DNA of 64,000 bases, from the NCBI RefSeq assembly GCF_001677475.2, contig NZ_CP015229.1. The stretch is one strand, 5' to 3'. Source of the DNA: Escherichia coli (GTDB lineage: Bacteria; Pseudomonadota; Gammaproteobacteria; Enterobacterales; Enterobacteriaceae). The notes below the pieces were generated by a model. The model searched no databases, was not told the DNA's origin, and worked only from the letters and a program-made list of their open reading frames with translations. The first letter of the stretch is position 1, and every line of letters begins with the position of its first letter. Shown here one piece after another: positions 2,218 to 57,684 of this stretch. Position numbers and translations under genes: made by a program.

Positions 2218-2474
2218 CAGCGCAGTACCTCCTGCACCAGTTTTTCAAACTTTCCAACTTTGGTTTCCAGCTCCGCCACACAATCCACCAGCTCATCCAC
2301 TGCTTTTTGTGCGCGATGTTTCGCCTGCATCAGTTCCCTGAGCGCTGGTACCATATCCCGACGAATGGCATCTTTTGTTACACCTGTTTTTTCCAGTTGT
2401 TCCGCCTGCCGCAACATTTCCTGTGCCTGTTTACGTAATTGCTCAGGGGTAAAAGTCATTGTCTGGTTGTTCAA
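2217..2474 (-). CDS. Hypothetical small helical phage protein (85 aa)
   Basis: ORF between the DnaB-like gene and Q-like gene on the same strand, with start/stop overlaps to both neighbours. Confidence 0.4.
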   Translation of the reverse strand: MNNQTMTFTPEQLRKQAQEMLRQAEQLEKTGVTKDAIRRDMVPALRELMQAKHRAQKAVDELVDCVAELETKVGKFEKLVQEVLR

Positions 2475-3862
2475 AAGAAACGCTCCATCTTACTGCTGTC
2501 AGTTCGTTTGTTACTGTACCTGCGCGGCTTGGACGGCTGCATTGGTGTGGAAAGAACCAGCGCACTTTCCTGGTCTACGGGCAGAAAATGTCCGTTATAA
2601 AAACGCCGGTAAATCGTTCCCAGAGAACCGTTACGTTGTTTCGTGATATTGATTTCCGCGATACCTCTGGCCTGCGTATCCGGGTTGTACACTTCATCCC
2701 TGTAAAGCATCAGAATGATGTCTGCATCAGCTTCTATTTCTCCGGAATTTTTCAGGTCTGAGTTCATAGGTCGTTTATTGGGTCTGGACTCAACTCCACG
2801 GGAAAGTTGGCTCAGCGCAATAACCGGTAATCCACCGGATTTTGCCAGGCCTTTAAGCCCTTTTGATATTTCCCCCACGGCAAGGTCATGACGGCCTGTG
2901 GATCGGGTTTTTATCAGCCCGAGATAATCAACCACCACCAGCGCCGTTTCCGGATGTTTAATCAGGTGGTGTTTCGTTGTTGCGCATATCTCGTCAATGG
3001 TCAGGTTCGCCTGGTCCACCATCCAGATATTGCGTCCGGTCATCAGCTCCACCCCCTTAATGAAACGCGCCCAGTCTTCGTCACCAAAGTGAGAGACAGA
3101 TTTCAGGCGTGATACCGGCATTCCTCCAGCCGCAGATACCATGCGTTCACCAATCTGGATGTTCGCCATTTCCATTGTGAACAGAAGAACACCATGCCCC
3201 TGCTCAGTCACCTTGTCGATGATATCCAGCGCCAGTTCTGTTTTCCCCATCGAAGGGCGAGCCGCGATGAATATCAGGTCGCCAGGCTCCATGCCGCCTG
3301 TTTTTGCGTCCAGTTCATCAATACCGGTCATCAACGTCCTGGATTTCTCCAGCCCCTTATTCCGGCATTCAACACGCTCAACCACCTCGGGAAGCACATC
3401 ATCAATATGTACCGGCTGAATAATGCCCTTTTCCGTCGACAATGAGGCCATCATGTTTTGCGCATCCTTCATGGCATCTTCAGCTGCTTCACAGGTATGC
3501 GCATCGCGTAATTTCTGCAATGCCTCATTCAGTATTTTTTCTGCATCACGCAGTGCAGCATTACGTCGCAGTGCTGCAACATAATGTTCCAGAGATGACT
3601 TCACCCAGGTTTTACGCCCGGAATCAGTAATCACCGGGGCAAGTTCCGGCATCTCATTACACAACAGCACAGGGTCAATCACGCCTGAAACACGGGCCTG
3701 TCGGCAGATGCCTGTGTAGATATCCCGATACGCTCGTACAGAAAAAACGTCTGCCGGCAATGTGGCCAGAATATCCATCACTTCATGATCAGCCCCGCGC
3801 AGAAAGAACGCACCAATGACAGCGCCTTCCAGGTCATCGTTACGCCAGACTGGAGTTGTCAT
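2471..3862 (-). CDS. Replicative DNA helicase, DnaB-like (phage-encoded)
   Basis: Walker A AARPSMGKTELAL, SQLSR motif and DnaB-like N-terminal domain; start taken at MTTPVWR, which overlaps the upstream stop (ATGA). Confidence 0.8.
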   Translation of the reverse strand: MTTPVWRNDDLEGAVIGAFFLRGADHEVMDILATLPADVFSVRAYRDIYTGICRQARVSGVIDPVLLCNEMPELAPVITDSGRKTWVKSSLEHYVAALRRNAALRDAEKILNEALQKLRDAHTCEAAEDAMKDAQNMMASLSTEKGIIQPVHIDDVLPEVVERVECRNKGLEKSRTLMTGIDELDAKTGGMEPGDLIFIAARPSMGKTELALDIIDKVTEQGHGVLLFTMEMANIQIGERMVSAAGGMPVSRLKSVSHFGDEDWARFIKGVELMTGRNIWMVDQANLTIDEICATTKHHLIKHPETALVVVDYLGLIKTRSTGRHDLAVGEISKGLKGLAKSGGLPVIALSQLSRGVESRPNKRPMNSDLKNSGEIEADADIILMLYRDEVYNPDTQARGIAEINITKQRNGSLGTIYRRFYNGHFLPVDQESALVLSTPMQPSKPRRYSNKRTDSSKMERFF

Positions 3863-4746
3863 GCTGCCACACCTCTGATACGAGAACGATAGCTGGGCCA
3901 GTTGAACGACAACCAGTTGCGCCCCCCGTCTGTGATCCTGTCGGCAATGCGGGGGCTGATAAACGCCCACAACTCTTCCGGTGAAAGGTTGCTGATCAGA
4001 ATGGTGGGCAGGATACTTTCGTACCGGGCATTGATAATTTCCTGCAAAATAGCCATTTCAGCCGCGCTGCCAAACTGAACACCAACTTCGTCGATGATCA
4101 GCAAATCCATTGACGCATAATGCTCAATAACTTCATCCGCTGTTTTTTCGCTATCATTCCGCCAGCAGTTTTTCACAGCACGGGTAAGGCGCATCACGTC
4201 GGTGATCTCCACGCTGGCCAGATGATTACGGATGATGTGTTTTGCCATTGATACCGCCAGATGATTTTTCCCGGTACCGCAACTGCCAGTCATAACAAGA
4301 CTGGTGCCGTTCTCCAGCATATCTGGCCAGTTCTCCGCATAGCGGCGACAGGCTGCAAGATTTCTGGCTGCGTCAGGATTAACCTCCAGATAGTTATCAA
4401 ACTCACAGTCCCGAAAACGCAGGGCAATTCCGGCGTTATCAGTCAGCTCTTCCGCCTTGAGGGACGACAGCTCCATGGTCAAATCGTTGGCCTCAGCGAT
4501 CAAGCAGTCAGGGCAGCATGAAATTTTTTCTCTGTCCTCGCCATTACGATCGCTCCACACCAGTATATGCGTACTGTATTTACCGTGTTTTTCGCAATAT
4601 CCACGACCATCACGCATCAGGCAGGAACGATAAGGCCATGGCTTTTCGCCCTTCTGAGCGAATGCAATCTCTGCCCGTAACTCATCCATTCGCGCCTGTA
4701 GTCTTTTTTGTTGTTCACGCAGGTTAAACGTCATCATCGCTGTCAC
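3859..4746 (-). CDS. DnaC/IstB-like AAA+ helicase loader with N-terminal Cys-rich region
   Basis: Walker A GSCGTGKNHLA and Walker B LLIIDEVG; N-terminal CEKHGKY...CCPDC cysteine cluster; sits between the O-like and DnaB-like genes. Confidence 0.75.
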   Translation of the reverse strand: MTAMMTFNLREQQKRLQARMDELRAEIAFAQKGEKPWPYRSCLMRDGRGYCEKHGKYSTHILVWSDRNGEDREKISCCPDCLIAEANDLTMELSSLKAEELTDNAGIALRFRDCEFDNYLEVNPDAARNLAACRRYAENWPDMLENGTSLVMTGSCGTGKNHLAVSMAKHIIRNHLASVEITDVMRLTRAVKNCWRNDSEKTADEVIEHYASMDLLIIDEVGVQFGSAAEMAILQEIINARYESILPTILISNLSPEELWAFISPRIADRITDGGRNWLSFNWPSYRSRIRGVAA

Positions 4747-4747
4747 C

Positions 4748-5662
4748 TCAGAATGTCAATTTGTCACTGGATTTACCGAATTTGTCAGACATGGCTCCCA
4801 GGCCAGACAGGACATCGACCTGTCGCTGTCGCCCACCTCCGGGAGCGGCTGGTTGTTGCCAGAAGTCTTCGAAGTGACGATCGGGGCCAAAGAACGTCGC
4901 TGCCTGCTTCACGAACTGTGTGCCGGTATTTCCTGTAGCACGTACCCAGGCGGCATAGCGTTTCACGCCATCAAGCATGGTTTCGGGTGTCACACCTTCC
5001 CTGATACGGGCTTTCCAGGCTTTGAAAGCAGCTGACTTGGAATTGCCACCAGCACGTTTGGGATATTCCTGCCAGGCCTGTTCAAATTCCGGTGAATATT
5101 CCTGTCGGGCAGAACGTGCTGGTGCAGACGCGTCAGCGGATGCACCAATAGTGTTTTTACTCTCTGTAGTATTCTCTGAAGTAATCTCTGTTGTATTCTC
5201 TGTAAGATCGAAATTGGTTTTCCCTTCTCCGCGGCGAGGGGTTTCCCGTGTCCGCGGTGAAGGCTTTCCCTCCTCCGCGAAATTGGGTTTTACAGTTTCC
5301 CGAAAACGGGTTTCCCCATTTCGGGAAAACTGATTGTTTTCATTGATAATTTCATTAAGGCGCTCACAATCTATACGGTAGAACATTTTGTGCTCAAGAC
5401 GCTTGTTGGTTTCAACCAAAATGCCTCTGGACACAAGATGCTTACGCGCTACAGCCTGTTGTTCAAATGTAAGTCCGGTTTCGTGTTGTATCTCTTCACG
5501 CGTTTTATGTACGCCTTCCGCTGCATGTGCTTTATCCTGCCAGTAAAAAATCTGACCAAAGAAAATAACAGCGTGCGGACTTCCCATGTATTTAACGAGC
5601 CCAGGGTAATAAGCAACCGGATGTCCAAAATCGAGCAGAAGATCAGACGGACGCATAGCCAC
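4748..5662 (-). CDS. Phage replication initiation protein (O-like replisome organiser)
   Basis: 304-aa ORF immediately upstream of the DnaC/DnaB-like pair; contains internal iteron-like direct repeats; start may be MAMRPS (5662) or MRPS (5656). Confidence 0.6.
   Translation of the reverse strand: MAMRPSDLLLDFGHPVAYYPGLVKYMGSPHAVIFFGQIFYWQDKAHAAEGVHKTREEIQHETGLTFEQQAVARKHLVSRGILVETNKRLEHKMFYRIDCERLNEIINENNQFSRNGETRFRETVKPNFAEEGKPSPRTRETPRRGEGKTNFDLTENTTEITSENTTESKNTIGASADASAPARSARQEYSPEFEQAWQEYPKRAGGNSKSAAFKAWKARIREGVTPETMLDGVKRYAAWVRATGNTGTQFVKQAATFFGPDRHFEDFWQQPAAPGGGRQRQVDVLSGLGAMSDKFGKSSDKLTF
5168..5205. repeat. Short direct repeats (ATTCTCTG-like, three copies) inside the O-like gene
   Basis: gtATTCTCTGaagtaATCTCTGttgtATTCTCTGtaag; encodes the repetitive TENTTEITSENTTES stretch. 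Confidence 0.45.
5214..5329. repeat. Iteron array (about five ~23-bp direct repeats); candidate phage replication origin inside the initiator gene
   Basis: Repeats GGTTTTCCCTTCTCCGCGGCGA / GGGGTTTCCCGTGTCCGCGGTGAA / GGCTTTCCCTCCTCCGCGAAATT / GGGTTTTACAGTTTCCCGAAAAC / GGGTTTCCCCATTTCGGGAAAAC; this mirrors the lambda ori-within-O arrangement. Confidence 0.5.
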
Positions 5663-5876
5663 CTCCCAGGCGTTTAAACATTTTTCCGGACTGAAACGCC
5701 ACCAGCGGATAACTCAGGGTATGAGTACGTCCCTGAACCTGGCAGACAACCTTCTGGCTTTCTGTATTGACCAGGCAAACCCGCAGAACGTGACCGTTGC
5801 TGGTGGTGAACCACTGCCCCACACGGGGGCAACGGTTGTATCGGTGATACAGGGAATTAACGACGCGGCGAATCAT
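5643..5876 (-). CDS. Hypothetical small protein (77 aa)
   Basis: ATG at 5874-5876 has a strong GGGAGG Shine-Dalgarno 7 nt upstream and overlaps the upstream stop (ATGA); lies just upstream of the O-like gene. Confidence 0.45.
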   Translation of the reverse strand: MIRRVVNSLYHRYNRCPRVGQWFTTSNGHVLRVCLVNTESQKVVCQVQGRTHTLSYPLVAFQSGKMFKRLGGGYASV

Positions 5877-6379
5877 GGGCGCGCCTCCCATTGATTACGG
5901 CGGAAAGCAGTGTGAGTCAGGCTGGTTTCGGCCTCATGGAATGCTTCAATGCAGCTCTCGTAGTACCGCATTGTGCGCAGACTTAACCCAAGCTGAAGCA
6001 TCATCAGACCATCAAGAGTTATGTAATAACCACGCAAAGAATCGCCATAAAGGTGATAAGTGCCGGGTATGAAATTACGGGTGAAAAACTCGCGCGAGCA
6101 GTTCAGATACTCGATTTTGTCGACGATATTCTGGTGCATGCGCTTGAAGTGGCAGGCAACATGCAGAGAGAAAATAACGGCCTTGCCGTTGACGGTCTCA
6201 ATTTTGAGGAATGGGTGAGTAGTGGTGGTAGTCATGGTGACAGCCCCGGTAGTCAGTTTGTTAGAAAACTCACCACCAAGGCTTTCCACGACCTTATAGG
6301 TGGTGAGACGTACAGGGGTGGAAATACCGGAGACTACCGAACCCGGCCCGACCGAAGTCGGCCCTGTACGCCCCACCAT
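5873..6379 (-). CDS. Hypothetical protein (start uncertain; C-terminal part of a long open frame)
   Basis: Frame is open from 7174 to 5873 but its upstream part overlaps the well-supported FinO-like gene; only the portion downstream of that gene is called. The stop overlaps the next ATG (ATGA); no convincing RBS was found at ATG 6379 or GTG 6472. Confidence 0.3.
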   Translation of the reverse strand: MVGRTGPTSVGPGSVVSGISTPVRLTTYKVVESLGGEFSNKLTTGAVTMTTTTTHPFLKIETVNGKAVIFSLHVACHFKRMHQNIVDKIEYLNCSREFFTRNFIPGTYHLYGDSLRGYYITLDGLMMLQLGLSLRTMRYYESCIEAFHEAETSLTHTAFRRNQWEARP

Positions 6380-6533
6380 AATTTGGGCGTAGCAATGCTC
6401 ATGACACGAAAAAACCGCATGAGCGCGGTTATGCTCAGTAATCAATTTCGGGTTTCCACGCCCGGCATCCACTTTACAAGATGCCTGAATAGTGTAACGT
6501 CCCGAAATTAAGGAATCAATGTTTTGATAAAAT

Positions 6534-6926
6534 TCAGCGATTAGACGCTTCTTTTCTACCCATATTAACTTTGAACAAGAGCTCCATACGACGAGTCCAG
6601 ATACCACGTTCTTTGAGTTGTGCTCTGGCTTCTTCGCGTTCAGATACGGATGTTCTGACAATACGATTTCCCGCCAGATTGCGGCGATATTCTCCAAACG
6701 CGACTGACTGAAGGTATGAATCTGAGCTTTTGTACTGATAGATGGCTCTTCGAAGGCTGTTTTTGTATTCCTTAGGTATATGTCCGAGATCGGCAAAGAG
6801 CTCATGAACGATATCGTGAACAAGCGGAACCACTTTGTATGGAATAACAAAGAAGCTTTCTGGATAGCGTTCAGCCAATACTTTAATGATTTCTTTATTT
6901 GCAAGATGCCTTGCTTTTCTTCCCAT
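6534..6926 (-). CDS. FinO/ProQ-domain RNA chaperone-like protein
   Basis: KEIIKVLAERYPESF...PL...SLRRAIYQYKSSDSYLQSVAFGEYRRNLAGN...EREEARAQLKE aligns by eye with the ProQ N-terminal FinO domain (KEVIAFLAERFPHCF...RSALRLYTSSWRYLYGV...RVDLDGN...EHARKQLEE). Confidence 0.7.
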   Translation of the reverse strand: MGRKARHLANKEIIKVLAERYPESFFVIPYKVVPLVHDIVHELFADLGHIPKEYKNSLRRAIYQYKSSDSYLQSVAFGEYRRNLAGNRIVRTSVSEREEARAQLKERGIWTRRMELLFKVNMGRKEASNR

Positions 6927-6989
6927 ATACCATTCTCCATTACTCTAGATATCAGAATGATATATCCAGGTTTTTCAAGCAGTTCAAGC

Positions 6990-7163
6990 TTATGCTGGTG
7001 CTTCACACTCAACAAAATCACGACGAAACAACCACAGCGGGCTGAAGCATTCATGCGGATAACCATCACGCAGGTAAATAACCCGCTGTGTTTCAGGCTC
7101 CCAGCGTATAACGTGGACACGACGCCCCCTTCCGTCACGGAACCAGCGATTGAGTACTTGCAT
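6990..7163 (-). CDS. Hypothetical small protein (weak call)
   Basis: Short ORF between the Lar-like and FinO-like genes; ATG at 7163 lies 8 nt after the Lar-like stop; RBS is weak. Confidence 0.2.
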   Translation of the reverse strand: MQVLNRWFRDGRGRRVHVIRWEPETQRVIYLRDGYPHECFSPLWLFRRDFVECEAPA

Positions 7164-7170
7164 TTGGATT

Positions 7171-7389
7171 TCATTCCACACCTACCCCTTCACGCTGATT
7201 CCAGTCATGAACAGCACGTTCTTTCGAATCAGGAATCTGGTTTGCGTTACAGCAAGTACATGCGACGTAATAACCATCATCGCCATCCAGAAAATATTTC
7301 ACCTCAATGAGTTGTACTTCCGGATTTCCGCAGAATGGGCAAGGTTTCAGCTCGACATCACCAGTTACACACGTCTTGATTTGCATCAT
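7171..7389 (-). CDS. Lar-family restriction alleviation protein (anti-restriction)
   Basis: ELKPCPFCG...GYYVACTCCNA...AVHDWNQR matches the Lar/restriction-alleviation zinc-ribbon signature (KPCPFCG ... C-x-x-C ... WN-R). Confidence 0.65.
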   Translation of the reverse strand: MMQIKTCVTGDVELKPCPFCGNPEVQLIEVKYFLDGDDGYYVACTCCNANQIPDSKERAVHDWNQREGVGVE

Positions 7390-8240
7390 TTGTTCTCCTG
7401 TAAAAGATTCGCAAGCTCAGTGTTATGGGTAAACAGCCCATCCCATGTTTTCTTCATCGGTAGTTCGCCGTTCAGATAATGGCGATATAACCAGGCAGCA
7501 CCTTTGGGCTTTAGTAACGGTTTAAAGGTGTCTCGCATTTCCCCATTTTCCTGCTCAACCCGGTTGTAGCGCTCCGTCAGATACTGATCACGTGCATACG
7601 CTTTTACACGCCAGCGTGGATACATAGCCTCCGGACGGTCGTCATACAGCCAGTTACGCTCTTCAAGGAACGCATTAATCTGACGAGTGTTTACACCGTT
7701 GAGTTGTTTGCAGAACTGCACAGGAGTGATGCCATCGGCGAGATGACTTTCGAGTTTGCTGATGTAGCGAGCCTGACGCTCTGCATACCCGAGAGCAAGG
7801 CGCTCGGATTTTTTGGCTTCAATCCACGCTTCAGCAGCAGCGATCGGATCGTCAAAGTCTGGAATAGTGTTTGAAGAAGGCGTTGCTTTACGAAAATACG
7901 CCTGCTCCATTTTTTCGAAGAACGACCAGGCCTCGTCTGTATCGACGATTTTTGACATGCGGGCAGCGCCGCGTTCTGTCCAGAGGACAAGTGATGTTGT
8001 ATGTTTATTAACCGACTCGCTAAAAGATAGTCGGAAAGATTTCAGCTCATCACTGCTGATTTTGAAAAAGTGTTTACCCTCAACGAAACGATCTTCATTT
8101 CGAATGTAGTTCTGTTGTATACGGATTGGCGTTGTTCCATATCCCGCCGCCAACGTTTCGGTGGTAACTACACGTACTCCCTGCCACTCAATAACTGGCA
8201 AGTTTTCAGGGTTGACTAATTTTTGTTTATTGATCATCAT
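7386..8240 (-). CDS. Phage antirepressor-like protein (ORF6N/KilA-N-type N-terminal domain)
   Basis: N-terminal IEWQGVRVVTTETLAAGYG...IRNEDRFVEGKHFFKI is characteristic of the ORF6N antirepressor domain; located immediately downstream of the Cro-like gene. Confidence 0.6.
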   Translation of the reverse strand: MMINKQKLVNPENLPVIEWQGVRVVTTETLAAGYGTTPIRIQQNYIRNEDRFVEGKHFFKISSDELKSFRLSFSESVNKHTTSLVLWTERGAARMSKIVDTDEAWSFFEKMEQAYFRKATPSSNTIPDFDDPIAAAEAWIEAKKSERLALGYAERQARYISKLESHLADGITPVQFCKQLNGVNTRQINAFLEERNWLYDDRPEAMYPRWRVKAYARDQYLTERYNRVEQENGEMRDTFKPLLKPKGAAWLYRHYLNGELPMKKTWDGLFTHNTELANLLQENK

Positions 8241-8316
8241 GAAATCCCCTTACTAATCAGAATAAGTCGGGCTGACGGAGTGCGGCCCGGCTTTTCTTTT
8301 TTCGTTCAGTAACCGT

Positions 8317-8583
8317 TCATCGCATGGACATTTCTGATGAATCACTCTGCCCATCTTCCGTGTGCGCTAAGCTTGGATGTGCTCCACGCTTGTTTTTGCG
8401 CGAGCGGTTCTTGTACAGGTTCAGATCGCACTTCAGAGCTCCATCAGTTAGTTTCTCAAGCTCCAGAGCACGCCCTTTAGGTACAATTGCTCCCCATCGA
8501 GTAACAGCCACTTGCGATACATCTAAAGCGCGCGCAACCTTTGCTTTAGTTCCAAAAAACGCAACTGCGTCTTGTGTTTTCAT
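8317..8583 (-). CDS. Cro/YdaS-like HTH DNA-binding protein
   Basis: 88 aa with N-terminal HTH (KAKVARALDVSQVAVTRW); divergent from the XRE repressor gene across a ~95-bp intergenic region. Confidence 0.55.
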   Translation of the reverse strand: MKTQDAVAFFGTKAKVARALDVSQVAVTRWGAIVPKGRALELEKLTDGALKCDLNLYKNRSRKNKRGAHPSLAHTEDGQSDSSEMSMR

Positions 8584-8678
8584 ACCACCTCCAAATAACT
8601 TATGTTTATCTTACTTCTATAACCATAGTTAGTTCAAGTTAACATATATTAATGATTCAACTAGTAGAGAGGATCCCC
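8584..8678. promoter_or_regulatory. Divergent promoter/operator region of the prophage immunity switch (predicted)
   Basis: AT-rich spacer between divergent HTH genes containing partially symmetric AGTTCAAGTTAAC / TTCAACTAGTA elements; operator sites not defined. Confidence 0.3.
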
Positions 8679-9065
8679 ATGGAAATAAGCGAACGCATTA
8701 CTATGAGACGCAAAGAGTTAGGACTTACCAAACTAGCCCTAGCCAAGACGCTAGGGCTGTCAGGTGTCAGCATATTGAAGTGGGAAAATGGGCAAAACGA
8801 GCCAAGCGGGAAAAACCTTTTCGCTCTCAGTGACGCTCTAAAATGCTCCCCGGCATGGTTGCTTTTTGGTGACGAAGATAAGTCTCCGACGCCAGTTGAT
8901 GAACTTCCAACAGAATTAGACGAGCAGCAAACTCAACTACTGAGTTTATTCAATCAACTACCAGACTCGGAAAAAACCATATTAATCAATGAGATATCAG
9001 CAAGAGTTGAGAACTTCAACAAACTATTTGAAGAATTACTAAGGGTCAGAAAACAACGCAAATAA
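8679..9065 (+). CDS. XRE-family HTH repressor (CI-like, short, no peptidase domain)
   Basis: MEISERITMRRKELGLTKLALAKTLGLSGVSILKWENG has an HTH_XRE signature; GAGAGGA RBS before ATG 8679; no S24/LexA-like autocleavage domain is visible. Confidence 0.6.
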   Translation: MEISERITMRRKELGLTKLALAKTLGLSGVSILKWENGQNEPSGKNLFALSDALKCSPAWLLFGDEDKSPTPVDELPTELDEQQTQLLSLFNQLPDSEKTILINEISARVENFNKLFEELLRVRKQRK

Positions 9066-13707: not shown

Positions 13708-13917
13708 GTGGGGCTGGATTGCGTACCTATATCAACCTACTGCCGCAACGCAGGAGAAACGGTTGATGCCGTTAACAAACGGATACAAAGAGGAATATGG
13801 AAAGAAGGGGTACATGTATTAAAAGTCGACGGAGTTAAAGAACGTTGGGTCGACTTAATGGAGATTACAAAATGGGCAAGAAAGAACAAGGATCATTATC
13901 TCTCCCCAGAGGAGTAA
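13708..13917 (+). CDS. Excisionase-like protein (putative Xis)
   Basis: 69-aa ORF with GTG start and GAGGTG RBS, immediately upstream of and overlapping the integrase gene; small winged-helix-like protein typical of Xis. Confidence 0.45.
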   Translation: MGLDCVPISTYCRNAGETVDAVNKRIQRGIWKEGVHVLKVDGVKERWVDLMEITKWARKNKDHYLSPEE

Positions 13918-15044
13918 CTATTCGCCAGCATAAAACTGGCAGCACCATGGTTATCACTTTTACATATAAAGGGGTTCTGTGTCGGGAGCCCCTCTCCAGA
14001 ATGGAAGTAAATGCGCGCGGTGTGAAGTACGCCGAGCGTCTGCTGGGAGAAATAAAAAATCAGATTATCGATGGTACCTTCGAATATGCAAAATACTTCC
14101 CCAACTCCCAAAAACTGGAGCTGTTCGGGGGAGTGAAAAAAAACAAAAATATAAAATCTTACCTGGATGAATACCTGATTATCTGCCAGAACCGTAACCT
14201 GTCACCATCGACAATTAAAGGTTATGAAAAATGCCTGTCGGCGCTGTCAGCACTGCACAAATTTCATGTATCAGAACTGACGCCAGCAGTACTCAAAAAC
14301 TGGATCGCCAGCAGAAAAACAAAACTGAAAACGATCCGCAATAATCTTTCATTTCTGCGCAGCGCCATAGATGAAGCGGTAACAGATGGTTTGTTAACAA
14401 TAAATCCTGTCACGCTAGTCAGCGCCAGCCGATATCACGTATTAGACAACACACCAGGCAGTGATGATTACGAGGTCGATCCTTTTACGCCAGCGGAGAC
14501 AGCAGCAATCTATGACGCCTGTCATTACCCGGAATGGCGAAATCTGTTTCGCTTCGCCTTTAATACCGGGCTGCGCAGCTCAGAATTGTGCGCGCTGCGC
14601 TGGACAGATATAGACTTCATCGACAACACAGCGCATGTCCAGACTGCAAGCGTAGTCGGGGTAATCAAAAGCACCAAAACAAAAGCCGGCACTCGCAAAG
14701 TACAACTGAACAGCGAAGCGCTGGCGGCTCTTCAGGCACAAAAGCCCTACACAGCGCTAAAAAGCGACTTTATATTCAGCGATCCGAAAACTCGCGCCCC
14801 TTGGGCAAACGCGGACGCGATTCGAAAAAAAGCCTGGCTACCAACCCTTAAAAAGGCTGGAGTACGCTATCGCAATCCGTACCAGACACGCCACACGTTC
14901 GCCACTAGGCACATTAGCCAGGGCGTTAATCTGTTCTGGCTTGCTGGTCAGATGGGGCATAAAGGACCGGAAATGCTGTTCAGACATTACGGTTCTTACC
15001 TTGCAGAATACGATGGAAAAACGGCGATTTCTGCAACCCCGTGA
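13872..15044 (+). CDS. Phage tyrosine integrase (IntR/IntS-like)
   Basis: C-terminal catalytic region with RHTFATRHISQGVNLFWLAGQMGHKGPEMLFRHYGSYL (R/H/Y motif region); N-terminal arm-binding-like domain; GGAG RBS before ATG 13872. Confidence 0.8.
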   Translation: MGKKEQGSLSLPRGVTIRQHKTGSTMVITFTYKGVLCREPLSRMEVNARGVKYAERLLGEIKNQIIDGTFEYAKYFPNSQKLELFGGVKKNKNIKSYLDEYLIICQNRNLSPSTIKGYEKCLSALSALHKFHVSELTPAVLKNWIASRKTKLKTIRNNLSFLRSAIDEAVTDGLLTINPVTLVSASRYHVLDNTPGSDDYEVDPFTPAETAAIYDACHYPEWRNLFRFAFNTGLRSSELCALRWTDIDFIDNTAHVQTASVVGVIKSTKTKAGTRKVQLNSEALAALQAQKPYTALKSDFIFSDPKTRAPWANADAIRKKAWLPTLKKAGVRYRNPYQTRHTFATRHISQGVNLFWLAGQMGHKGPEMLFRHYGSYLAEYDGKTAISATP

Positions 15045-54005: not shown

Positions 54006-54079
54006 GAAAGACGCGCATTTGTTATCATCATCCCTGAATTCAGAGATGAAATTTTGGCCACTCACGAGTGGCCTTTTTC
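54006..54079 (+). ncRNA. micA: MicA (SraD) small regulatory RNA
   Basis: GAAAGACGCGCATTTGTTATCATCATCCCTGAATTCAGAGATGAAATTTTGGCCACTCACGAGTGGCCTTTTT in the luxS-gshA intergenic region, ending in a terminator hairpin plus T-run. Confidence 0.75.
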
Positions 54080-56917: not shown

Positions 56918-56994
56918 TGGTGCATCCGGGAGGATTCGAACCTCCGACCGCTCGGTTCGTAGCCGAGTACTCTATCCAGCTGAGCTACGGATGC
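56918..56994 (-). tRNA. argQ: tRNA-Arg (anticodon ACG)
   Basis: Reverse complement is GCATCCGTAGCTCAGCTGGATAGAGTACTCGGCTACGAACCGAGCGGTCGGAGGTTCGAATCCTCCCGGATGCACCA; name assigned by position in the array. Confidence 0.85.
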
Positions 56995-57096
56995 ATCGGG
57001 AAAACTTATTTTACTGCTGATATTGATACCGCTACTAAAGCCATATCAAATAAGAAAATCCATCTTAACCATCATCACTGATGATTACGGAGAATA

Positions 57097-57173
57097 TGGT
57101 GCATCCGGGAGGATTCGAACCTCCGACCGCTCGGTTCGTAGCCGAGTACTCTATCCAGCTGAGCTACGGATGC
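57097..57173 (-). tRNA. argZ: tRNA-Arg (anticodon ACG)
   Basis: Identical 77-nt tRNA-Arg sequence; second copy. Confidence 0.85.
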
Positions 57174-57235
57174 ATCGGGAAATTTATTTTACTGCTGATA
57201 TTGATACCGCTACTAAAGCCATATCAAGTAAGAGA

Positions 57236-57312
57236 TGGTGCATCCGGGAGGATTCGAACCTCCGACCGCTCGGTTCGTAGCCGAGTACTCTATCCAGCTG
57301 AGCTACGGATGC
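57236..57312 (-). tRNA. argY: tRNA-Arg (anticodon ACG)
   Basis: Identical 77-nt tRNA-Arg sequence; third copy. Confidence 0.85.
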
Positions 57313-57376
57313 ATCGGGAAACTTACTTTACTGCAGATTTTTTGATACCGCTACTAAAGCCGTATCAAGTAAGAGA

Positions 57377-57395
57377 TGGTGCATCCGGGAGGATT
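57377..57395 (-). other. Truncated tRNA-Arg fragment (3'-terminal ~19 nt only)
   Basis: TGGTGCATCCGGGAGGATT matches the 3' end of the tRNA-Arg copies, then diverges into unrelated sequence. Confidence 0.4.
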
Positions 57396-57511
57396 ACTCG
57401 CCTTGCGGCTCGCCCTTCGGGCCGTTGCTAAAGCAACGTTATCCTTCCTGGTGCTTGCGGCTAGTACCGCCACCTCTTCCACATCTTCATCGCTGAAGAT
57501 TACGGATAATA

Positions 57512-57588
57512 TGGTGCATCCGGGAGGATTCGAACCTCCGACCGCTCGGTTCGTAGCCGAGTACTCTATCCAGCTGAGCTACGGATGC
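57512..57588 (-). tRNA. argV: tRNA-Arg (anticodon ACG)
   Basis: Identical 77-nt tRNA-Arg sequence; fourth copy, 3 nt from serV. Confidence 0.85.
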
Positions 57589-57591
57589 AAA

Positions 57592-57684
57592 TGGCGGTGA
57601 GGCGGGGATTCGAACCCCGGATGCAGCTTTTGACCGCATACTCCCTTAGCAGGGGAGCGCCTTCAGCCTCTCGGCCACCTCACC
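57592..57684 (-). tRNA. serV: tRNA-Ser (anticodon GCU)
   Basis: Reverse complement is GGTGAGGTGGCCGAGAGGCTGAAGGCGCTCCCCTGCTAAGGGAGTATGCGGTCAAAAGCTGCATCCGGGGTTCGAATCCCCGCCTCACCGCCA, with a long variable arm. Confidence 0.85.

Follow-up and report, generated by a model that had tools for sequence, protein, structure and literature searches.

What does a FinO-domain gene do among the early genes of a lambdoid prophage? This question is raised by a 64,000-nucleotide (nt) stretch of an Escherichia chromosome (Escherichia coli, NZ_CP015229.1, assembly GCF_001677475.2), hereafter called the window, which starts inside such a prophage. In the early-right region of this prophage, minus-strand positions 6534-6926 encode a protein of 130 amino acids (aa), which the original prediction had described as a FinO/ProQ-like RNA chaperone. 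In this study, we concluded that the protein belongs to the FinO/ProQ family as a minimal member with a single domain, within a rare prophage-borne subfamily of about 122-142 aa, and that a C4-type antisense-RNA module begins 50 nt past its stop codon on the same strand. These RNA genes, which were not listed in the original prediction, are the main clue to the function of the protein. Since relatives of only 33-52% identity have the same placement, we consider it likely that the protein is the dedicated RNA chaperone of this C4/IsrK module, rather than a general rewirer of host RNAs.

The 130-aa protein matched the Pfam family PF04352 (ProQ/FINO) with an expect value (E) of 2.5e-13 and 50.4 bits, residues 10-107 aligning to model positions 4-99 of 109, and its residues 6-106 aligned to positions 6-105 of the 205 positions in the NCBIfam ProQ profile (NF003434). 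The FinO-domain assignment and the alignment along most of the ProQ N-terminal domain, both of which had been made by eye, were thus borne out by profile search, and the former also by the predicted fold. The AlphaFold2 model of the protein had a predicted local distance difference test (pLDDT) score of 93.5, and in a Foldseek comparison with the PDB the top 26 matches were all RocC, Lpp1663, NMB1681 or FinO, with nothing else at E<1. A subfamily profile made of the protein and 17 relatives matched the ProQ N-terminal domain (ProQ-NTD, 5NB9) at E=1.6e-17 and RocC (7RGU) at E=1.9e-14; Lpp1663, NMB1681 and FinO were matched as well, and the values for ProQ-NTD, Lpp1663 and RocC lay between 1e-14 and 1e-17. 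An identical protein, WP_038813125.1, is already called "ProQ/FINO family protein" by the Prokaryotic Genome Annotation Pipeline (PGAP), and a GGAG Shine-Dalgarno sequence stands 9 nt ahead of the ATG of the gene. Orthology with ProQ was rejected, as the protein scored 41.2 bits against an equivalog cut-off of 127 bits and is a single domain without linker or C-terminal domain; the description as ProQ-like therefore holds for the FinO domain and fails for the architecture. FinO orthology was rejected in the same way (NCBIfam NF010317, 19.7 bits against a cut-off of 136 bits).

The crystal structure of RocC with RocR showed that Tyr87 and Arg97 form the 3'-nucleotide pocket, with Arg75 on the N-cap helix (PMC9674577). 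These three residues, Y70, R80 and R58 in ProQ, align with Tyr71, Arg81 and Arg59 of the 130-aa protein. Tyr71 is invariant in the subfamily, and most members have Arg or Lys at the position of Arg81. The protein also has an additional C-terminal helix, which is conserved and contains an invariant-like Trp110. By analogy with the characterized members of the family, the protein presumably binds RNA, and the same analogy is used below to propose candidate ligands. In the 63-nt gap upstream of the gene, a hexamer scan found a promoter-like TTGAAC-N17-TATATC on the minus strand (6959..6987, 8/12 matches), which was below the threshold of a separate consensus promoter scan and may be a weak promoter of the FinO gene. 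Elsewhere the gene is preceded by a divergent gene or by a long gap, so that in those lineages it must have a promoter of its own.

As read from its sequence, the RNA module is a complete switch of the P1 immI / Gifsy-1 IsrK type, composed of a leader with terminator, a C4 RNA, targets at a ribosome-binding site (RBS) and a Rha-like gene, all on the minus strand. The leader (6484-6408) matched Rfam RF01394 isrK with 53.4 bits (gathering score 50) and gave a weak match to c4-a1b1. It folds into two hairpins, carries the C4 target b1 (GUGGAAA, 6459-6453) in the second loop, and ends in an intrinsic terminator with a stem at 6430-6413 followed by a U6 run. A promoter-like TTGATT-N17-TACACT at 6491..6519 (minus strand) is spaced so that transcription would start at about 6484, the 5' end of the Rfam isrK match, and is probably the leader promoter; the promoter of the homologous Gifsy-1 isrK has been shown experimentally (PMC4825925).

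The C4 RNA (6383-6296) matched Rfam RF01695 with 81.9 bits against a gathering score of 45 (E=7e-16). Its predicted fold is a long closing stem around two inner hairpins (-47.3 kcal/mol, z=-5.6 relative to shuffled sequence), and a tRNA-like closing stem and a ..CCACC 3' end are visible in it as features bearing on possible RNase P processing of C4 out of the read-through transcript. Loop a' is CGGUAGUC, internal loop b' is UUUCCAC, and the 3' end reads ..CACCACC. A search for exact complementarity paired b' with GUGGAAA both in the leader (6459-6453) and just after C4 (b2, 6289-6283), and paired a' CGGUAGUC with a2, GACUACCG, at 6254-6247, which lies 12 nt before the ATG of the Rha-like open reading frame (ORF) and over its RBS region. 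The two target sites b2 and a2 together span 6247..6289. This complementarity suggests that C4 controls a Rha-like regulator or antirepressor-type gene. The Rha-like ORF itself (5873-6235, 120 aa) matched PHROG 995 at E=1.4e-55, further Rha-like and anti-repressor PHROGs, and Pfam Phage_pRha.

The PGAP extends this ORF upstream through the RNA genes, resulting in a 222-aa "ash family protein" (ORF 5873-6541, minus strand). Phage_pRha corresponds to residues 125-205 of this product, and Phage_ASH to residues 16-106, which are nt 6496-6224 and thus the RNA module. Annotation as "ash family protein" at such loci appears to be the translation of conserved RNA genes, and the real start of the Rha-like ORF is probably the ATG at 6235. 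A 433-aa ORF at 5873-7174 and the plus-strand ORFs overlapping the region were rejected as genes, since the former crosses and the latter overlap RNA genes and better-supported minus-strand genes.

The linkage of FinO gene and C4-type RNA was followed in relatives of the protein. Word-indexed homologue searches gave few members, and the subfamily was revealed by an exhaustive search of 1.84 billion representative proteins, which returned 47 relatives, about 20 of them single-domain proteins of about 122-142 aa. For eleven more representatives, each from its own cluster at 50% identity, the surrounding DNA was retrieved; distances below are counted from the FinO stop codon, and identities are relative to the window protein. 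Nine of the 11 informative lineages, the window lineage included and the others at 33-52% identity, have a C4-type RNA or leader downstream on the same strand, and the linked lineages occur in lambdoid prophages, P2-like prophages and short metagenome contigs. The contigs of P0004 and P0007 were too short to be informative and are outside the 11.

Lineage P0002 (52%), in a P2-like prophage beside cpxA, has an a1b1/isrK leader and then C4 at 145 nt, followed by a Derepression-family gene. C4 lies at 158 nt in P0005 (40%, a metagenome contig that ends thereafter), at 161 nt in P0009 (35%, metagenome contigs), where a Bro-N gene is next, and at 547 nt in P0010 (34%, P2-like prophage), with one opposing ORF between and an unannotated 101-aa ORF next. 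Two sRNA-Xcc1 units at 121 nt follow the gene of P0006 (36%) in a lambdoid nin region and precede ORF6N genes, while sRNA-Xcc1 is found at 134 nt in P0008 (38%, short contig) and at 98 nt in P0011 (33%, metagenome contig), the latter followed by AntA. The gene of P0012 (36%, metagenome contig) is followed at 61 nt by an a1b1/isrK leader, after which the contig ends.

Across about 214 kilobases of scanned DNA, C4-type matches were found solely downstream of FinO genes. The linked RNAs have a loop sequence of at least 7 nt that is exactly complementary to a leader site and to a site near the downstream start codon or RBS; the complementary sequences differ between lineages, and the logic holds in seven other loci. 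An alignment of eight FinO-linked C4 RNAs contained compensatory changes at 15 of 27 stem pairs, and every linked leader ends in a terminator and U run, the canonical ligand of a FinO domain. Judged by these sequence features, the linked RNAs are working C4-type modules and not relics. In the P0010 lineage (L023 and L025, 3928-3967 and 4775-4814), a 40-nt repeat, AAAAA(A/T)AGTGAATCACTATCTTGACATAGTGGCACACTAT, with a consensus -35 hexamer TTGACA and short inverted repeats, stands upstream of both the FinO gene and the C4 leader, which suggests a common promoter or operator and joint regulation.

Two further observations concern the linked RNAs. Tandem copies of the leader-C4 or sRNA-Xcc1 unit follow the FinO gene in L017 (3443-4000), L010 (6502-7143) and L011 (5560-6201), and in L010 and L011 each copy precedes its own ORF6N gene. 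In L010, L011, L019 and L026 the position of C4 is taken by sRNA-Xcc1 RNAs (RF02221), which are outside the C4 clan. These RNAs share the logic of C4, having loops complementary to a leader site and to the downstream RBS region, and a ..GCCACC-like 3' end; these features suggest that they are related to C4 or are its functional analogues.

FinO domains recognize the base of a hairpin and a single-stranded tail with 3'-OH, typically that of an intrinsic terminator (PMC9674577), and for FinO, FopA and RocC the partner is in each case a single antisense RNA, either cis-linked or dedicated, such as FinP for FinO and Inc for FopA (PMC9977716). Given the conserved arrangement of FinO gene and C4 module, the simplest reading is binding of the protein to the terminated leader, to the mature C4 RNA or to both. 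We have proposed a plausible model on this basis. The switch would run from a promoter through the a1b1/IsrK leader, with its intrinsic terminator at the end, and the C4 RNA, which is processed out of read-through transcripts, to the RBS targets and the antirepressor-type gene. The protein would grip the hairpin base and the single-stranded tail with its 3'-OH, as other FinO domains do, on the terminator of the IsrK-like leader, on the stem and tail of mature C4, or on both. Such binding may protect the leader and C4 RNAs and speed their pairing, and would determine the degree to which the Rha-like antirepressor is kept from being translated, thereby tuning prophage stability and induction. 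This role is deduced from position, and the effect may be either stronger repression or stronger activation. A broader version of the model, in which a minimal FinO-domain subfamily co-evolved with C4-type RNAs (C4 and sRNA-Xcc1) to form a protein-assisted RNA switch, a phage "FinOP", setting antirepressor expression in lambdoid and P2-like prophages, is put forward more tentatively, at somewhat less than even confidence.

Several results weigh against the protein being a dedicated chaperone of the module. The beta-turn glycine that is near-universal in the family (Gly52 in RocC, Gly37 in ProQ) is Asp38 here, and D, G, N, S, K, T or H occupies this position across the subfamily. The N-cap serine is not clearly kept: Tyr54 stands at its position in the alignment, and the helix is predicted to begin before it, at residue 52. 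With 8/12 matches, the window's promoter-like sites are weak. No C4-type RNA was found in the 339 and 247 nt available downstream of the genes of P0003 and P0014, respectively, and none of 50,697 phage records yielded a homologue in tblastn searches with the window protein, P0006 and P0008. IsrK is classed in Rfam among the Hfq-binding RNAs, and a chaperone of the host may therefore be enough. The FinO gene was present in 13 of 5,426 complete E. coli genomes, always with the DUF4222 gene and with all copies 100% identical, whereas a similar isrK-C4 segment was present in 1,937 E. coli genomes, about a third of the complete genomes. With the FinO gene in less than 1% of the related E. coli modules, C4 modules work without the FinO protein, and the protein is at most an optional modulator.

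The rarity of the gene extends beyond E. coli genomes. A tblastn search of 72,556 plasmids with the window protein gave no homologue; a search with the three closest sequences gave nothing in GTDB species-representative genomes and four near-identical contigs in IMG/VR, and single-protein IMG/VR scans for P0003, P0004, P0007, P0014, P0019 and P0050 gave nothing. Annotation is uneven as well, with RefSeq/PGAP leaving the FinO-family ORF unannotated in 10 of the 13 carrier genomes (H34-H43, e.g., L002 4041-4488) despite 100% identical DNA. The flanks are mosaic, and different genes lie upstream and downstream of the FinO gene in different genomes.

Three other explanations for the protein were considered. 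The mosaic flanks, the presence in 13 of 5,426 genomes, the substituted beta-turn glycine and the fact that the ORF often goes uncalled by PGAP would all suit a mere passenger, that is, a moron hitch-hiking at a module boundary prone to recombination, or a decaying domain that has lost its RNA binding. We regard this as the least probable of the explanations, because the linkage survives divergence of the protein to 33-52% identity and a complete change of the C4 specificity loops, the fold is predicted very confidently, the key Tyr and Arg are conserved, and in lineage P0010 a promoter repeat is common to the FinO gene and the C4 leader. It is also unlikely, though a little less so, that the protein is a global regulator like ProQ, which binds many host and phage terminators, rewires host small RNA (sRNA) networks and adjoins C4 incidentally. 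Minimal FinO-domain proteins without extra domains can bind globally, as does ProQ/NMB1681 of Neisseria meningitidis (PMC9977716; PMC9674577), and the conserved pocket residues recognize generic hairpin-plus-tail features. However, the gene-to-RNA arrangement is found again in nine of 11 lineages, with identities as low as 33% and in prophages of unrelated types, which is unexpected for a free-standing global regulator, and the mobile-element proteins of the family that have been studied, FinO and FopA, have one dedicated partner. The original prediction had suggested that the protein could reprogramme host sRNA networks or stabilize phage antisense RNAs; nothing in the analysis speaks for the former, and the latter fits the position of the gene and its distant relatives directly upstream of C4-type modules.

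About as improbable, in our estimate, is an antagonist or substitute of host chaperones, which would compete with ProQ or Hfq for the leader, C4 or host RNAs and would insulate or de-repress the switch. Host ProQ associates with IsrK in Salmonella (PMC5391140), the lack of a FinO gene in most related C4 modules fits an optional modulator, and the atypical beta-turn residue could alter binding properties. The synteny data, however, fit the simpler model of a chaperone dedicated to the C4/IsrK module equally well.

The FinO gene and its RNA module lie in an interval whose genes are all on the minus strand. The DicA-type prophage repressor gene (8652..9065, plus strand; NCBIfam NF007257 DicA, 177 bits against a cut-off of 101 bits) stands before a cro/DicC-like early regulator gene (8317..8583, minus strand; PHROG 409, NCBIfam DicC). 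Then follow, on the minus strand, an ORF6N/Ant-type antirepressor gene of 284 aa (7386..8240; PHROG 63 "anti-repressor Ant", E=7e-47), which PGAP names "ORF6N domain-containing protein" in relatives, a Lar-family zinc-ribbon gene (7171..7389) and a DUF4222 small-protein gene of 57-63 aa (6990..7163/7181; PHROG 1343 at E=1.2e-33, and PGAP). Past the FinO gene (6534..6926), leader, C4 RNA and Rha-like ORF come an 82-aa ORF (5643-5891) and the O-like replication initiator gene (4748..5662; PHROG 270, E=2.7e-67), at which the interval ends, and beyond it a DnaC-like loader (3859-4746) and a DnaB-type helicase (2471-3970), also on the minus strand. The prophage integrase is a tyrosine integrase at 13845-15044. 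The earlier account of the interval between cro and O was correct in its position between cro/DicC-like and O-like genes and in the ORF6N antirepressor, and left out the isrK/a1b1 leader, C4, the Rha-like ORF and the 82-aa ORF. Its placing of the FinO gene next to the Lar gene did not stand, since the DUF4222 gene lies between them.

The 72-aa protein encoded at 7171-7389 was confirmed as a Lar-family member by profile search, scoring 49.4 bits against the 39.6-bit cut-off of TIGR03655 and matching Pfam PF14354 Lar_restr_allev (E=3.9e-11) and PHROG 599; its zinc-ribbon Cys motifs are CPFCG at residues 17-21 and CTCC at 44-47. Identity as the RalR equivalog was rejected (25 bits against 113). 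Lar-bearing versions of the region without a FinO gene occur in about 800 E. coli genomes, and in the two FinO-bearing genomes for which annotation was inspected, DUF4222 is preceded by a gene of the Rha type and the stretch shown contains no Lar gene. A functional FinO-Lar pair was rejected, since the genes occur independently in other genomes; the Lar-family gene, two genes upstream of the FinO gene, is a separate accessory gene, probably for anti-restriction.

Other features of the window were recorded in passing. On the plus strand at 8212-8303, a promoter-like TTGACT-N17-CATCAT (8212-8240) stands ahead of a strong intrinsic terminator with a U run (stem 8264-8293; z=-2.8). The RNA of about 55 nt that the two would produce is antisense to the ORF6N antirepressor gene (minus strand, start 8240) at its RBS and 5' end. 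Such an RNA would resemble the sar RNA of P22 and would add to the antisense RNAs near the FinO gene that end in a terminator. Just past the integrase, a 1565-aa ORF (15359-20056, minus strand) matched only PHROGs of unknown function (21473, 30792), and tRNA-Ile2(CAT), at 22961-23036, has a second recombinase-like ORF (20893-22035) next to it; this region may be a separate island. The chromosomal flank (window 20500-26000 and beyond) is 96.7% identical to the best of the 5,426 complete E. coli genomes, and an identity of only this level indicates that the host is a divergent Escherichia lineage. MicA (54006-54077), naRNA4 and a tRNA gene block (56921-57684) were also detected.

Among the sRNA chaperones of bacteria, FinO/ProQ proteins form the third major class, and phage-encoded members have been acknowledged in reviews (PMC9977716). 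In the open-access literature that we searched, there was no phage-encoded FinO/ProQ protein with an assigned RNA partner or role, and no paper linking C4 RNA with FinO-domain proteins or STnc1160 with ProQ; in the same literature, isrK and FinO were linked solely in a list of ProQ-associated sRNAs. Phage-borne FinO/ProQ homologues and C4/IsrK modules were thus already known, and the new points are the conserved pairing of FinO gene and C4 and the putative FinOP-like, protein-assisted antisense control. C4/IsrK modules decide antirepressor production and hence prophage silence, including in Shiga-toxin phages of the same mosaic family, and the pairing suggests that prophage induction thresholds are tunable by a dedicated RNA chaperone. 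If the proposed role is true, it would be the first defined function for a phage-encoded FinO/ProQ protein and possibly a protein layer on immI-type immunity specificity, and tRNA-like processed C4 RNAs or terminated leaders would be a new ligand class for FinO domains. For structural work, the window protein provides a naturally minimal FinO domain for which a candidate ligand is known.

Compared with known systems, the RNA module has the same RNA families, the same layout and the same kind of downstream antirepressor-type gene as P1/P7 immI (c4-icd-ant) and Salmonella Gifsy-1 isrK-orf45(STnc1160)-anrP. In Gifsy-1, read-through of the IsrK terminator yields a translationally silent mRNA, a processed STnc1160 of about 80 nt is complementary to IsrK, IsrK in trans switches on the antirepressor AnrP, and IsrK and STnc1160 control AnrP (PMC4825925). 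The locus described here differs from both in its FinO-domain gene, none having been described for them, and in its controlled gene, which is a short Rha-like ORF. The neighboring 72-aa protein resembles Lar/RalR of the Rac prophage in its Lar-family membership above the curated cut-off and in its zinc-ribbon Cys motifs.

The FinO-domain protein shares with E. coli ProQ the N-terminal FinO domain, to which its residues 6-106 align, but it has neither the linker nor the C-terminal Tudor-like domain. Its best structural matches are RocC, with a target-normalized template modelling score (TM-score) of 0.72-0.80, Lpp1663 of Legionella pneumophila and NMB1681 of N. meningitidis, which likewise consist of a FinO domain with only short extensions and keep the Tyr/Arg pocket for the 3' end. 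Those proteins, in contrast, are chromosomal, have global or competence-specific regulons and are only 16-26% identical to the window protein, which has Asp38 in place of the beta-turn Gly and an extra C-terminal helix with Trp110. FinO-FinP-traJ of F-like plasmids also combines a small FinO-domain protein of a mobile element with a dedicated structured antisense RNA that masks the RBS of a regulator mRNA, and, by analogy, the window protein is expected to bind a hairpin and 3' tail as FinO does. It differs from FinO in having no long N-terminal helix; the C4-type RNA would be cut from a same-strand transcript and act on repeated target sites, unlike a true opposite-strand antisense RNA; and the target is an antirepressor-type gene of a prophage instead of a conjugation activator. 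A further difference from the plasmid system is that here the gene of the protein lies directly beside its presumed RNA.

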